From a bacterium (GTDB lineage Bacteria > Patescibacteriota > Minisyncoccia > Minisyncoccales > CG1-02-41-26), in NCBI GenBank assembly GCA_030616605.1, contig JAUWWY010000003.1:6707-70706 (forward strand): 64,000 bases of DNA, in the 5' to 3' direction. The translations under genes were made by a program, and so were the position numbers. The stretch's first letter is position 1. Each line of letters starts with the position of its first letter. The notes beneath the pieces are model-generated. The model was given only the letters and a program-made list of their open reading frames with translations. It was not told the origin of the DNA and searched no databases. Positions 59,889-64,000 of the stretch are shown one piece after another.

Positions 59889-62800
59889 TTATTCTGGAAT
59901 TGGCTCAGGAGTTGGCTCTGGTGTCGGCTCTGGTGTTGGTTCGGGTTCTGGTTCGGGTTCTGGTTCTGGTTCTGGTTCTGGTTCTGGTGTCGGCTCTGGT
60001 GCTGGTTCTGGTTCAGATTCAGATTCAGGTGTTGGAATAGTGTCACCGGTCGGGACGGTGATGGTTTCTGGATCGGTGGTAGTTGTAGCTGTTGTATTTG
60101 TTGTAGTCGTAGTGTCATTGGTCGGGACGGTGTCAGTTTCTGTAGTCGTGCTGGTTGTTGTCGTAGTATCACCGGTCGGGACGGTGTCAGTTTCTGTTGT
60201 CGTAGTGTCACCGGTCGGGACGGTGTCACTTGGCGAATCGGAGGACTGTCCTCCGTTTGTGCTTGGAACAGTTTTACACTCGCCTTGCACGCTTGTCACG
60301 TCGCCGTTTTCCACAAAAACACAGAAAGGTTCATCTGAATTGCGGTCATAAAGAGTAATGCCGCTCTTTGCATCTTGGGAATGCTTAACCATCAGCAATT
60401 CTGTTTCAATTTCCTTTGCTTTTAATTTTCCAAGTTCCAGAGACCCGTTCTCTGTCACTAGCAGACCGAGTAAAGCAAGCGACTGTCGCAATTCTTCTGG
60501 AGAAAGATTCACAATCTGACCCTCACTGTTTTCTTGAATTGTCAAGTCAGTACTTGTGCCAGATTCAAAGAGAAAACCTTTTATGAAAAAGTTGCCTTGT
60601 TCAGTTAGTTCAGCGATTTTCTCGTTATTTTGATTAAAGAAAATGAGAGAGTTGGGAGAGCTTGTTGCCTCAATTATTTTGAAGCCATTGTCAAAGATTA
60701 AATCATTAACAGTAATGTTGGCTGTGTAAAGATGATTCCATCTTGTATCTGAAGCACCAAGGTCATAGCTTTTGTCAACTTGTGGCAGGATTGCATGGGC
60801 AGTAGTAACACCATTAATATGTAAAATGGTTGAGGGAGTTGTTGTCCCGATGCCGACGTTAGCGCCAATGATTTGTAAATTAGACTCAGCTGTGTTAGCT
60901 CTGATTCGCAGGTCATTAGAATTAGCTTCATCATAATCAATGGTCCATTCATAATTACTACCGAATTTTGACTTTAATTCCTCAATTTGTGTCTGCTGTT
61001 CCTGAATTGCCTTTGCATTAAGAGCTGTTAAGCGCTTATATTTTACATCACGAGGTTCACCATCAAGATATTGTACTAAAAGAGGAGAAACTTTTTCCAC
61101 TTCTTCCGCTATAAGCCCAATCTGTCTATCTGTAATATCGGGAGCGTAATCTTCTTTATAATCAAAGCTGACTGGTCTTAACTGCATTACAGCATCTAAT
61201 CCTAAATCCAGGTCTTCAATATTTTCTTTATATCTTATACTTGATTCTACGCACTTAAGTACTTTACGGGTACTTGCACCTGAAGGGCCAACAGTCGAAA
61301 CCCAACATAATTGACCGGTACCGCCAGCGGTTGAATATCTAAAATGAAGCTGATATGCTTCAACATCATTAAAAGAAGTGCCATTAGTAGTGTATATATC
61401 CGCATCAGATCTAATACTCCCAACAACATCCAAACTTACCCCAGGACTATCCGTCCCGATGCCGACTTTGCCGTCAGCATCAATTATAAAAGGAGTTGTA
61501 TCTCCATCAGGACTATCATCCACTCTGAATGAAGCACCTGAACCTGCATTTAAAACATCCAGCTTAGCATCTGGCCACGTAAACGAAGTAAGAACCACTT
61601 GGACGTGATCAATCTGCAACGTGCCGCTGGTGTCCACAAAGAATTTCAAGTCGGTACCGTCAGCAGTCACCTCCCAGTTAAACACGATACCGTGGCCGCT
61701 AATACCGGTGTCCTGCAGGATAATTTTATTGCTGTCACTACCCAGAGCCACGTAGGTGTCGCCCGTCCAGGCCAAGTTGCGATAGACAAAGGAGACATGA
61801 TAGGTCTTCCCTGACTGGGCCACGGTCTGGTACAGGGTTTTGGACCCACCAGCGACATTGAACTCCAGGGTCTTATCGTCCCAGAAATTGTCCACTGGCG
61901 AATTGTCCCTGACGACGTAATTGCTTGTACCGGCTCCGGTGTCGCTCCAGCTGTTAGGGGGTGTGCTGCCAGTTGCCCCAGTCCAATCATCTTCATTGGT
62001 CACTTCATTCTCGCCCGCTGTCCCGATGCCGAGGTAACCGGCAAAGTAAGCCTTACCTGCATAGATGCCACTGGCGTTGATTTTTCCGGCCACCCCGAGG
62101 TTTGTAACAGGATTCGTTACCCCGATGCCGACGTTTCCGTCACTTCCAATACTCATTCTTTCTGTAGAAGCATCAGAACCACTTGGTGTAGTCCAAAACG
62201 CTATCCTACCGGGAGTATTATCAGCGCCGTGATTGGCTGTTGCTGAAAAACGGATACTCCCTAAATCCCCATAAGTCTTTGGAGTTGCAGCATTATCTCT
62301 TGCTCTGGATATCATTGCAGCTGCTGTACCGCCAGTACTCAAATAACCACCTGTAGCTTCATCATTATAGAACTGTAATTGTGGGTCGTGTGTATCAGAT
62401 ACTGCACTGATATGCAATCTTGGGACAGTGCCACTTACTCTAGCTACACCAACAACCTCCAATTCAACAAGAGGACTATCCGTCCCGATGCCGACATTGC
62501 CAGTACCAGCAGTTGTTTGACCAACTATGCTAAGAGTGGGTGTCGTATAATCACTATTAGATTGAACAATGAAATTAACATATGTTTCTTCACCACCAGT
62601 AGTATCATCTTTGAAACCACTTTCAATCATTAGCAAATTTTGTTCACTATCAACAGAATTATAAGCAAGTGTTGATATTCTTACACCTGAATTAGCATTG
62701 CTTCCATCATTAAACAATCCTAACATACCAAGCATGCTTGTAGAAGTGTCTTGTATATCAAGAATATATCCAGGACTCTCCGTCCCAATTCCTATTTGAC

Positions 62801-64000
62801 CTTCATTATCAATAGTCATTCTGCTTGTTAAAGCACTACCATCCACAGCAGTCTGAAATTTCATTTTACTATCCCAGTTTGCACTTTGTGCTGCATTTAC
62901 TGGCTCAATCATAATTGCTGCGTGGTCTCTAATATTCTTCTCAAAGATAATTCCAAAGTCATTAGCATTACCATCTGTGCTATCTATTCTTATAAAAGGT
63001 GTTGAAGCAGCTTGAATATGCAGTTCATCATCAGGACTATCCGTCCCGATGCCGACATTGCCTGTGTTATCTTGAAAAGTCATTACTGTTCCTGCTGATT
63101 CATCCTTGATAATAAGGTCAGTAGTCCCATGAAGTTCCTGTATTCTCCATTCCAGCACTCCCCCTGTATAGAAGTTTAGCTGGGTATCATAGTCTATAGT
63201 TCCTCTGTCAATTTTGGAAGTGGCGTGTCCGCCTGAATCAATAACAAAACGGGTTGTGTCTGTTCCAGCACCAGTAAGACCCACATCTCCCCCAGCTACT
63301 TCTAATTTATAATCAGGACTACTCGTCCCGATGCCGACGTTGCCATCATGTTGAATTCTCACCTGTTCTGTTAATGTATAATCAGCATTTGTTTCTCCTG
63401 TTCTGAATATAATATCATTATTGCTTGCAGTGGCATGTCCTGCTATATCAATATACATTCCAGCACCGTCAAACAAAGTCCTTCCCTCTTGGTCACTTAT
63501 AGTAGAAGTGTAATAAATCTGAGGTCTTGTTACTCCACCAATCATTAATGTTTTTGTGTCATCAGCTGGCATATTAAAAGTTCCAGGACTCACCGTCCCG
63601 ATGCCGACGTTGCCTGAACTTAAATCTCCATAAATAGCATTGCCTATATTAAGTTGATTATCTGCTGTAGCAGAAGGAGCATCTACATCAGCTCCTATTA
63701 TTATATTTGATGAACCTGTAGTTATGTTATCCCCTGCTTGCCATCCTAAAGTTATGTTATAGTTACCTGAAGTATTACTATAAAGAGCATGATAGCCTAT
63801 CCCAACATTTCCATTACCTGTAGTAAGATAAACAGAAGCTTGACCAAATGCACAATTCTGGTCGCCTGTAACATTGGTAAAAAGAGCATAAGAACCTAAC
63901 GCACTGTTCTCGTAACCGTCAACATTGTTATAAAGAGCATGTGAGCCTATACCCATATTATCATAGCCTATAGAATTAGATAAAAGACTCATATCGCCTA
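59889..64000 (-). CDS. Giant tail-fibre-like surface protein (at least 1367 aa); the frame stays open to the window edge
   Basis: There are 9 or more modules starting G(N/K)VGIGTxxP, an internal peptidase S74 domain, and a T/P/E-rich tail. No in-frame stop lies between the ATG at 63992 and position 64000. Confidence 0.8.
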   Translation of the reverse strand, partial: GDMSLLSNSIGYDNMGIGSHALYNNVDGYENSALGSYALFTNVTGDQNCAFGQASVYLTTGNGNVGIGYHALYSNTSGNYNITLGWQAGDNITTGSSNIIIGADVDAPSATADNQLNIGNAIYGDLSSGNVGIGTVSPGTFNMPADDTKTLMIGGVTRPQIYYTSTISDQEGRTLFDGAGMYIDIAGHATASNNDIIFRTGETNADYTLTEQVRIQHDGNVGIGTSSPDYKLEVAGGDVGLTGAGTDTTRFVIDSGGHATSKIDRGTIDYDTQLNFYTGGVLEWRIQELHGTTDLIIKDESAGTVMTFQDNTGNVGIGTDSPDDELHIQAASTPFIRIDSTDGNANDFGIIFEKNIRDHAAIMIEPVNAAQSANWDSKMKFQTAVDGSALTSRMTIDNEGQIGIGTESPGYILDIQDTSTSMLGMLGLFNDGSNANSGVRISTLAYNSVDSEQNLLMIESGFKDDTTGGEETYVNFIVQSNSDYTTPTLSIVGQTTAGTGNVGIGTDSPLVELEVVGVARVSGTVPRLHISAVSDTHDPQLQFYNDEATGGYLSTGGTAAAMISRARDNAATPKTYGDLGSIRFSATANHGADNTPGRIAFWTTPSGSDASTERMSIGSDGNVGIGVTNPVTNLGVAGKINASGIYAGKAYFAGYLGIGTAGENEVTNEDDWTGATGSTPPNSWSDTGAGTSNYVVRDNSPVDNFWDDKTLEFNVAGGSKTLYQTVAQSGKTYHVSFVYRNLAWTGDTYVALGSDSNKIILQDTGISGHGIVFNWEVTADGTDLKFFVDTSGTLQIDHVQVVLTSFTWPDAKLDVLNAGSGASFRVDDSPDGDTTPFIIDADGKVGIGTDSPGVSLDVVGSIRSDADIYTTNGTSFNDVEAYQLHFRYSTAGGTGQLCWVSTVGPSGASTRKVLKCVESSIRYKENIEDLDLGLDAVMQLRPVSFDYKEDYAPDITDRQIGLIAEEVEKVSPLLVQYLDGEPRDVKYKRLTALNAKAIQEQQTQIEELKSKFGSNYEWTIDYDEANSNDLRIRANTAESNLQIIGANVGIGTTTPSTILHINGVTTAHAILPQVDKSYDLGASDTRWNHLYTANITVNDLIFDNGFKIIEATSSPNSLIFFNQNNEKIAELTEQGNFFIKGFLFESGTSTDLTIQENSEGQIVNLSPEELRQSLALLGLLVTENGSLELGKLKAKEIETELLMVKHSQDAKSGITLYDRNSDEPFCVFVENGDVTSVQGECKTVPSTNGGQSSDSPSDTVPTGDTTTTETDTVPTGDTTTTTSTTTETDTVPTNDTTTTTNTTATTTTDPETITVPTGDTIPTPESESEPEPAPEPTPEPEPEPEPEPEPEPEPTPEPTPEPTPEPIPE
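59901..60030. repeat. Hexanucleotide microsatellite (GGTTCT/GGCTCT)n encoding (E/T)P repeats
   Basis: The run ggttctggttctggttctggttctggttct and variants encodes PEPEPEPEPEPTPEPTPEP on the minus strand. Confidence 0.9.
60040..60235. repeat. Degenerate repeats encoding (T)nETDTVPTGDT, 4 copies
   Basis: The core CACCGGTCGGGACGGTG is present 3 times, plus one variant CATTGGTCGGGACGGTG. Confidence 0.85.
60962..61247 (-). other. Peptidase S74 (intramolecular chaperone, autoprocessing) domain within the giant protein
   Basis: ESSIRYKENIEDLDLGLDAVMQLRPVSFDYKED...IGLIAEEVEKVSPLLV...VKYKRLTALNAKAIQEQQTQIEELK. Confidence 0.7.

Follow-up and report, generated by a model that had tools for sequence, protein, structure and literature searches.

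A giant MAT-like fibre gene of a Patescibacteria bacterium with an internal Peptidase_S74 domain and a C-terminal cassette not found in phage collections

Host recognition and attachment are largely unknown in bacteria of the Candidate Phyla Radiation (CPR; Patescibacteria), for which the usual suspects are type IV pili and unspecified 'giant surface proteins' (PMC12206443, PMC8080830). The sole experimentally characterised family of bacterial prey-recognition fibres is that of Bdellovibrio bacteriovorus, whose mosaic adhesive trimer (MAT) fibres are trimeric, displayed at the surface and equipped with capping loops (PMC10769870, Caulton et al. 2024). MAT proteins end in a Peptidase_S74 (S74) domain in 13 of 21 cases and in other adhesive tips in the remaining 8; Bd3182 cuts itself at the S74 serine, and Bd2439 binds prey glycans (PMC10769870). 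Here we describe a giant fibre gene at one end of a 64,000-nucleotide stretch of a Patescibacteria chromosome (contig JAUWWY010000003.1 of assembly GCA_030616605.1), hereafter the window. The gene ties CPR giant proteins by sequence to the MAT family. Its product is a fibre of the known, MAT-like kind; new are the CPR host, the internal position of the S74 domain and, behind it, a widespread and undescribed cassette that was not found in phage collections.

The likeness to MAT fibres, among which both the S74 subgroup (e.g. Bd3182) and the NS74 subgroup (e.g. Bd1334, Bd2133) were compared, comprises a chromosomal gene of a bacterium living on other cells, a protein of about 1000 amino acids (aa) or more, repeated beta-helix modules with capping loops, an S74 domain with the S-x4-K dyad whose self-cleavage was shown in Bd3182, and a mosaic design with exchangeable ends. 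It includes a direct match to the Bd1334 shaft, in which aa 567-640 of the fibre, with one loop, match 8OML (E 3.1e-7) and 8ON4 (E 1.1e-4). S74 is terminal in all 13 S74-type MATs, whereas 360 aa follow it in the window protein, and a cassette of stalk, linker, Cys-Cys unit and acidic tail is not described for MATs. The window protein has an S74 domain and, behind it, a further end of stalk and Cys-Cys unit, a combination outside the published description of the family (PMC10769870). MAT proteins start with a beta-rich domain that is conserved and ~130 aa long, after the signal peptide, from which the signal anchor or the helix-turn-helix (HTH) and transmembrane (TM) segments of the window protein's relatives may differ, and the host here is a monoderm CPR bacterium rather than a Gram-negative predator. 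Patescibacteria are not mentioned in the table of relatives in other predators and organisms given in the MAT paper (PMC10769870), and we found no literature linking S74 domains to Patescibacteria or describing the cassette.

Phage S74 fibres (K1F endosialidase, T5 pb1, S16 gp37, S-B28 gp08) share with the window protein the shaft, the S74 domain, its Ser-Lys dyad and the helical chaperone end. In these fibres the chaperone ends the protein, and S74 is described as a C-terminal domain in a phage fibre atlas (PMC12143355), whereas the window protein has a cellular context, membrane-anchored relatives and a cassette of its own. The ICA/S74 domain of the eukaryotic MyRF (MYRF) is internal and does cleave (PMC8326128); here the likeness would extend to a trimerisation-dependent Ser-Lys cleavage, with the same spacing, that parts the N-terminal from the C-terminal portion. 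MyRF differs in having a TM helix downstream of the ICA domain. No such segment is present in the window protein, as the maximum 19-residue Kyte-Doolittle hydropathy past aa 1008 is only 1.02. The N-terminal part is moreover a DNA-binding domain in MyRF and a predicted extracellular fibre in the window protein, in another kingdom and another compartment. We consider it probable that the gene encodes a MAT-like trimeric fibre on the surface of a CPR cell, made for attachment to a host or partner, which cuts itself at Glu916|Ser917 and so detaches a 451-aa C-terminal fragment.

The open reading frame (ORF) occupies 59889..63992 on the minus strand and encodes 1367 aa counted from the first ATG. 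Upstream of this ATG two more in-frame codons, GGC GAT, lead up to the window edge with no stop among them, which places the true N-terminus outside the window; a preliminary description of this DNA had likewise given at least 1367 aa and a frame open at the edge. The repeated GxVGIGTxxP modules that it pointed out amount to eight capping loops. Seven of them, at aa 127, 217, 311, 398, 498, 619 and 841, match the pattern G-x-[IVLFM]-G-[IVLM]-G-x(3,4)-P, and the eighth, A-N-V-G-I-G-T-T-T-P, stands at aa 1043, after the S74 domain. The internal placing of this domain held as well, and the residues behind it number 360 (aa 1008-1367), slightly more than the ~330 first estimated. They form, in this order, a capping-loop/stalk module with LGASDTRWNHLY, a linker with a Cys-Cys mini-domain, for which we use the name LCC, and a tail of 122 aa composed of 33% Thr, 23% Pro and 16% Glu. 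No further ORF with an S74 domain, an LCC or capping loops, that is, no paralogue, was found elsewhere in the window. The parts of the gene are as follows.

63615..64000, minus strand: visible N-terminal part, aa 1-126 and two upstream codons; Gly/Asn/Ala-rich short repeats (…NSALGSYAL…NCAFG…NVGIGYHAL…); frame open at the window edge.
62031..63614, minus strand: shaft, aa 127-654; six capping-loop modules (GxVGIGTxxPxxxL) at a spacing of ~90-120 aa.
61578..62030, minus strand: inserted all-beta domain, aa 655-805, without detectable relatives.
61245..61577, minus strand: pre-chaperone tip, aa 806-916; seventh loop (aa 841) and Cys896/Cys914 pair; ends at Glu916.
60972..61244, minus strand: Peptidase_S74 intramolecular chaperone/autocleavage domain, aa 917-1007; Ser917 codon 61242-61244, Lys922 codon 61227-61229.
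60558..60971, minus strand: post-chaperone stalk module, aa 1008-1145; eighth loop (aa 1043) and motifs LGASDTRWNHLY…DLIFDNGFKIIE…EQGNFFIKG.
60273..60557, minus strand: LCC unit, aa 1146-1240; linker (…GQIVNLSPEELRQSLALLGLLVTENGSLELGKLKAKEIETE…), then Cys-Cys mini-domain (GITLYDRNSDEPFCVFVENGDVTSVQGEC, Cys1224/Cys1239).
59889..60272, minus strand: Thr/Pro/Glu low-complexity tail, aa 1241-1367; TVPTGDTTTT and (EP)n/(TPEP)n repeats; stop codon 59889-59891.

Profile searches bore out the S74 assignment. Pfam PF13884 matches aa 917-973 over profile positions 1-57 of 58 with 53.1 bits (cut-off 22; E 3.9e-14), and a family hidden Markov model (HMM) places the domain at aa 914-1007 (E 1.4e-38). A profile that includes the query matches solved chaperones, among them the phage long tail fibre 6F45 (3.5e-17), 8JOV, MyRF 7DC3 (6.5e-10), the T5 L-shaped fibre 8HQZ and the GA-1 neck appendage 3GUD, whose chain starts exactly at the residue equivalent to Ser917. 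Residues 990-1007, AKAIQEQQTQIEELK (compare …AIQEQQxQIxxL…), align with the helical ends of 6F45, 8JOV and 7DC3, the segment that builds the trimeric coiled coil of S74 domains. Across an alignment of 22 diverse members only the Ser and Lys of S-x4-K, one Gly and one Ala are invariant. The query dyad, Ser917/Lys922 (SSIRYK), has its Lys at +5. The dyads of endoNF (S911/K916) and MyRF (S587/K592) have this spacing too, and neither of their residues can be dispensed with (PMC8326128). The dyad is present in 202 of 203 sampled S74 domains and kept in all 34 internal and all 148 terminal domains sampled, counts that are partly circular because the domains were picked by HMM. These features indicate that the S74 domain of the fibre is genuine and probably catalytically active, with Glu916|Ser917 as the predicted scissile bond. 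The gene thus offers a concrete maturation step, and the cleavage into two products suggested in the preliminary description would be the expected consequence of an intact dyad. A further stretch, aa 1146-1200 (TDLTIQEN…, compare SSIRYKEN…), was considered as a decayed second S74 domain and discarded at an S74 HMM score of -0.2 bits.

Far from being an isolated oddity, the protein belongs to a cellular family of very large size. A whole-protein search retrieved more than 3473 relatives of 1000-2400 aa, many of them on contigs of hundreds of kb; Elusimicrobia, Parcubacteria, Pacebacteria, Micavibrio and Chitinophagaceae are among the sources with a name. When GTDB genomes and JGI metagenomes were scanned at protein level, a single relative, L001, came up, at 25% identity. 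The kinship with phage tail fibres that had been noticed at the outset is clear: PHROG tail-fibre families match the fibre with E down to 9e-33 and 528 phage records match it, the best being cyanophage S-B28 gp08 with 30% identity over aa 125-1010. The preliminary description had suggested that the fibre may be 'domesticated'; nothing here establishes the direction of transfer, from phage to cell, that this word implies. At the N-terminus of full-length relatives stands a signal-anchor helix, or else an HTH with a TM helix. In P0374 (L020 4223-9610), P0258, P0387 and P0316 a cytoplasmic HTH_17 domain (E 2e-5 in P0258) and a TM helix precede a giant extracellular fibre; the HTH-first relatives include the syntenic fibre from Nealsonbacteria. 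In such relatives the coupling of a DNA-binding domain to a surface adhesin hints at contact signalling.

The locus itself is cellular: the fibre gene belongs to the chromosome of a Patescibacteria (CPR) bacterium and not to a phage. The remaining ~60 kb of the window hold an rRNA operon, tRNAs, glycolysis genes (enolase, iPGM, GAPDH), ftsZ, a ftsQ-like gene, murein and penicillin-binding protein genes, aminoacyl-tRNA synthetases, dnaK/dnaJ, purine genes, an NTP-transferase, thioredoxin reductase (TrxR) and a TPR protein, and no phage functions were found among these genes. The cellular neighbours named in the preliminary description, such as the TPR protein and ftsZ, are correct; its O-antigen-ligase label (Wzy_C) was not recovered by the Pfam scan of the window TPR protein, and Wzy_C is on record for a 61.5%-identical orthologue of this neighbour.

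The locus is syntenic with two related Patescibacteria, both of which have a fibre gene in this slot. In GCA_030019175.1 (Patescibacteria group bacterium) a 53-kb contig ends in the orthologous fibre gene, P0121, the best relative of the C-terminal part (E about 1e-52 with aa 1036-1250). Behind it come, in turn, a Y1 transposase, Wzy_C/TPR, ftsZ, NTP-transferase, a carbohydrate kinase, TrxR and enolase. This is the order of the window except for the transposase and the kinase, at 57-72% aa identity. P0121 is cut by the contig end, and its visible 453 aa have ordinary shaft modules where the window protein has S74. The transposase, of the IS200/IS605 type (L002 1488-2264), sits between the fibre gene and Wzy/TPR and has no counterpart in the window. 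In Ca. Nealsonbacteria RBG_13_42_11 a complete fibre gene of 1795 aa stands between ligA and ftsW/rodA, which precede it, and Wzy/TPR, which follows. A scan with the Wzy/TPR protein gave 31 loci, whose named sources are Patescibacteria (Nealsonbacteria, Paceibacterota and others) except for one weak, TPR-only match in a Bacteroidetes metagenome-assembled genome. In most of the other loci the slot is occupied by something else, at times by other giant ORFs, and because most loci differ there, the position beside Wzy/TPR-ftsZ looks like a variable site, or hot spot, for large surface proteins. The giant ORFs in the slots of L010, L028 and L033 (1454 and 1429 aa, 1132 aa, and 2453 aa) have no capping loops, S74 or LCC.

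Against this background we regard it as highly improbable that the gene encodes the tail fibre of some prophage, tailocin or contractile injection system with its remaining genes immediately past the window edge. The clear homology to phage tail fibres, S74 included, would fit such an origin, as would the position of the gene's upstream side outside the window, and a partial relative, P0131, lies near an integrase gene. On the other side of the gene, however, 60 kb are purely cellular, the synteny extends to two Patescibacteria, one with ligA-ftsW directly upstream of the fibre gene, and full-length relatives carry N-terminal membrane anchors, unlike virion fibres; the cassette, too, has no counterpart in 50,697 phage genomes, and none was found in IMG/VR. 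Since cellular genes stand on both sides of the fibre gene in the syntenic relative, no prophage or tailocin has come into view so far, in line with the preliminary description. A foreign origin on grounds of base composition was also discarded. The fibre gene has 42.9% GC against 36% in the remaining window, and this excess comes mainly from amino-acid composition; at third codon positions its GC content (GC3, 0.22-0.37) overlaps the range seen in housekeeping genes (0.22-0.33).

The region behind the S74 domain has a different distribution. All phage and PHROG matches to the fibre end at aa 1007-1010, and in S-B28 gp08 the aligned S74 domain ends 6 codons ahead of the stop. No match to aa 1036-1250 was obtained in the 50,697 phage genomes, nor in IMG/VR, whether scanned with the one protein or with the conserved patterns of the LCC, the pattern-based scans being of limited sensitivity. 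In the protein universe the same region finds 1921 cluster representatives at E <= 1e-3. Judged by these searches, the post-S74 cassette appears to be a separate, non-phage unit that is common in Patescibacteria-type giant proteins. Instead of the undefined 'globular part' of the preliminary description, we find a conserved linker and a Cys-Cys unit with an acidic low-complexity tail, which end many Patescibacteria-type fibres. The linker consensus is …GQIVNLDPEQLRxGLAxLGLxVxENGxLEVxKLKAK… and that of the mini-domain is GITxYDRxTGxPYCxxxENGxxxxxxGxC, where 26 sequences agree without exception on the Asp, both Cys and one Gly. Relatives bear tails of a similar kind, acidic and rich in Pro, Thr and Ser, of 60-300 aa and in some cases with MopE-like Cys repeats. 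The tail of the window protein has neither a sorting motif nor a TM helix, and its matches to TonB and procyclin EP regions are compositional only.

An LCC HMM recognises 62 of the 390 sequences in our local set of relatives, nearly always 60-300 aa from the C-terminus, and the named carriers (P0121, P0382 and the Nealsonbacteria gene) are all Patescibacteria. The unit may lie directly behind S74, as in P0382, P0288, P0301, P0275, P0098, P0131 and others. It may also lie behind a domain whose profile matches the phi29 gp12 auto-chaperone (3GQH, E 2.8e-5) and whose DIAERY motif is aligned to the residues at which the cleaved phi29-type chaperone begins; P0387, P0374, P0341, P0362, P0369, P0330 and P0389 are of this type, which includes the syntenic Nealsonbacteria gene. 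Finally, it follows a stalk module, YxLGxxxxRWxNxY…DLxFxNxFRxxE…, without a protease in P0121, P0249, P0251, P0256, P0265 and others. The window protein has S74 and then an end of this last type, and it alone among ~390 sampled relatives shows the order of S74, stalk module and LCC. Because LCC and tail also follow the unrelated chaperone of the phi29 gp12 pre-neck appendage (Peptidase_G2 type), in place of which the window protein uses S74, the cassette is a general partner of self-cleaving chaperones. The gene thereby exposes a widespread C-terminal unit that follows two unrelated self-cleaving chaperones in its relatives. By eye, the fibre genes of P0249 and P0350 also show apparent intein-like inserts, Hint-type blocks ending …HNF[IV]ANGI[LI]AHNT, two of them in P0350.

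The post-S74 stalk is 55% identical to that of the syntenic orthologue P0121, which aligns with the window protein over aa 1045-1239 only, and 42% identical to a stalk located before S74 in P0098, which in turn has a weak match to Pfam End_tail_spike (E 2e-4, 21.9 bits, under the 25-bit cut-off). An AlphaFold monomer of the cassette, built on the 26-sequence alignment, has a predicted local distance difference test score (pLDDT) of 70.8 overall and is confident at aa ~1100-1245; it is made up of small beta units together with a single short helix and a Cys-Cys sheet of three strands (LCC pLDDT 80-94). The cassette often stands behind a self-cleaving chaperone, of one or the other of two unrelated types, and so may serve as a registration and solubility cap; our working guess is that LCC and tail form a folding/registration and solubility cap which leaves with the chaperone. 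It may also be a functional tip or a second product, given that uncleaved fibres end in it and that a real stalk module is part of it here.

An internal S74 domain is a recurrent minority design in cellular fibres, seen in ~12% of the sampled S74-bearing relatives. The residues past the last S74 domain number at most 60 in 142 of 185 such proteins, 61-150 in 21 and more than 150 in 22, and two S74 domains occur in 5, in a sample that is biased, its second half having been picked for likeness to the C-terminal part of the query. The post-S74 regions contain Ig-like (immunoglobulin-like) domains, a weak H-lectin-like match, coiled coils or a beta-rich end. P0016 has a second complete fibre with S74 after its first S74 domain, and P0389 has S74 and a G2-type chaperone in series. 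Two other relatives show further ways for S74 to be non-terminal: P0124 has S74, then a coiled coil and a C-terminal hydrophobic/TM helix, which is the MyRF-like order, and for P0087 the precomputed Pfam domains list a Por_Secre_tail of the type IX secretion system (T9SS) alongside S74.

Such serial architectures raise the possibility of a fibre polyprotein, in which the internal S74 domain is a built-in processing site and a single gene gives rise to two trimers, each with a function. The first would be a fibre anchored to the cell, with Glu916 as its last residue, and the second a free or loosely retained mini-fibre with an S74 base, a stalk, an LCC knob and an acidic tail, acting as a soluble binder, a decoy, or a matrix or bridging element. 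We think this possible, though distinctly less likely than a discarded end. The part that cleavage would release has a stalk module that is complete and of the kind found at the end of uncleaved fibres, and at least 8 other proteins from independent assemblies (P0016, P0129, P0131, P0135, P0182, P0389, P0151 and P0085) continue behind an S74 with further fibre modules, another S74, a chaperone of the G2 type or a C-terminal domain of a distinct kind. The Ig-like and weak H-lectin-like domains behind S74 in relatives, and the dyad kept in every one of the 34 internal domains, are consistent with the same idea. LCC, however, has no recognisable binding fold, and many relatives have just LCC and tail behind the chaperone, which is more like a disposable cap. 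If the downstream fragment does function, S74 would be a processing device and not just a disposable chaperone, which so far only the eukaryotic MyRF shows. Extended to the family, this could mean that in ultra-small episymbionts S74 (or G2-type) chaperones act as internal processing sites of exported, C-terminally trimerised fibre polyproteins, giving an anchored host-binding fibre and one or more free trimeric modules with an LCC knob and acidic tail, and that the LCC cassette is a new registration/release module so far confined to the Patescibacteria type; we offer this as a tentative generalisation that is rather unlikely to hold as a whole.

In the reading that we prefer, with a self-cut fibre and a released end, the chain would be exported, with an N-terminal anchor beyond the window keeping it in the membrane, as suggested by the signal-anchor helix, or HTH_17 and TM helix, with which full-length relatives open. 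Three chains would be brought into register from their C-terminal ends, S74 would template the folding of the upstream beta-helix, and the Ser-Lys dyad would then cleave Glu916|Ser917. A fibre of at least 916 aa would stay on the cell with Glu916 as its predicted new C-terminus, and its fresh tip, aa 806-916, perhaps with the lateral domain at aa 655-805, would bind the target surface. By analogy with Bd3182 and phage fibres, aa 806-916 would be the stretch that S74 folds and then exposes (PMC10769870). The trimeric 451-aa fragment, made of S74, stalk, LCC and tail, would be released, and the weakest part of the scheme is that LCC and tail leave with the chaperone as a cap. The adhesin role put forward in the preliminary description is likewise suggested by homology.

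Several points weigh against this scheme. Cleavage, trimerisation, surface display and binding are all inferred for the window fibre, its N-terminus and upstream genes lie outside the window, and the dyad counts are in part circular, as noted above. The Ig-like and possibly lectin-like domains of relatives sit after S74, so they would be shed too; shedding a real stalk module, and such domains, seems wasteful, which argues that the downstream part has its own function or stays attached. In P0121 the stalk-LCC end continues from ordinary modules, with no protease in the visible 453 aa, and there behaves as a fibre tip, not a leaving group. A Foldseek search of the cassette model against the PDB gave nothing significant (best E 0.25; scattered trimeric phage-fibre pieces).

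The end of P0121 also bears on a fibre that is never cut, where S74 would be a trimerisation node only, the intact protein would end in the stalk-LCC tip and the Thr/Pro/Glu tail would be a flexible brush. Binding-type domains past S74 in relatives make most sense if they are retained, and a partner protein can inhibit MyRF cleavage (PMC8326128). A purely structural role, however, would not preserve the dyad, and Ser917/Lys922 and all sampled internal dyads are intact; moreover, every S74/ICA protein tested cleaves after trimerising (PMC10769870, PMC8326128). We therefore take an uncut fibre to be unlikely.

By its combined end the gene looks like a mosaic, in which a shaft-S74 block shared with phages would have been joined to a resident stalk-LCC-tail end, plausibly by recombination at the capping-loop motif. 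Compared as DNA, the loops of the fibre have a common near-identical core of ~14 nucleotides. Of the eight, the post-S74 loop diverges most, with 63% identity to the reference copy; for the shaft loops the identity to this copy is 83-91% in 5 of 7 cases and 66% in the other two. An assembly chimera, or a recent loss of a stop codon, could likewise have joined an S74-ended fibre gene to the end of another at the repeated capping loop, and the unique order of S74, stalk and LCC and the short near-identical DNA cores of the loops would be in keeping with this. These cores are only ~14-35 nucleotides long, diverged and shorter than sequencing reads, however, and the frame is continuous across a junction (aa 1008-1042) that resembles the S74-to-loop junctions of P0151 and P0131. 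The syntenic orthologue has its stalk-LCC end at the same place, beside the Wzy/TPR gene, and serial architectures recur in independent assemblies, so that an artefact is very hard to credit.

Toward the N-terminus, aa 1-126 match repeat arrays in more than 100 giant relatives, with the JGI label 'trimeric autotransporter adhesin', and aa 3-155 match PHROG tail spike and virion structural families. These Gly/Asn/Ala-rich, head-like repeats are a likeness to trimeric autotransporters of the YadA family, and some relatives have precomputed Pfam PF05658 and PF05662 domains. No Pfam match to a YadA-type anchor or YadA head was found in the window protein, and its C-terminus is the Thr/Pro/Glu tail. 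A monoderm CPR cell has no outer membrane to hold a beta-barrel anchor.

The domain inserted between shaft and pre-chaperone tip (aa 655-805) is a candidate lateral ligand-binding domain. Its best matches are at E 0.052 in Pfam and E 0.39 in the PDB, and none of the 390 local relatives matches it. A single-sequence AlphaFold model of aa 640-835 was all-beta, with a pLDDT of 41.6 that makes it unusable. The impression of a carbohydrate-binding jelly roll was dropped, as no Pfam, PDB or local homologue supports it.

Elsewhere in the window, a surface-type protein of 1474 aa, unrelated to the fibre, is encoded at 1988-6412 on the plus strand, with a Lamin-tail domain (LTD), fibronectin-III and two Lcl C-terminal domains. 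Five blocks of a 102-nucleotide (34-aa) tandem repeat, with 73-82% matches, occupy 6560-9205, where the only ORFs listed have 145-179 aa; they are either a small repeat-protein family or a fragmented repeat gene. The rRNA operon (30018-38542, minus strand) has an unusually long 16S-23S spacer of ~3.6 kb, which contains two tRNAs (36487-36636), a mechanosensitive-channel-like ORF (33525-34205) and a Swt1-like HEPN protein (34656-35441).

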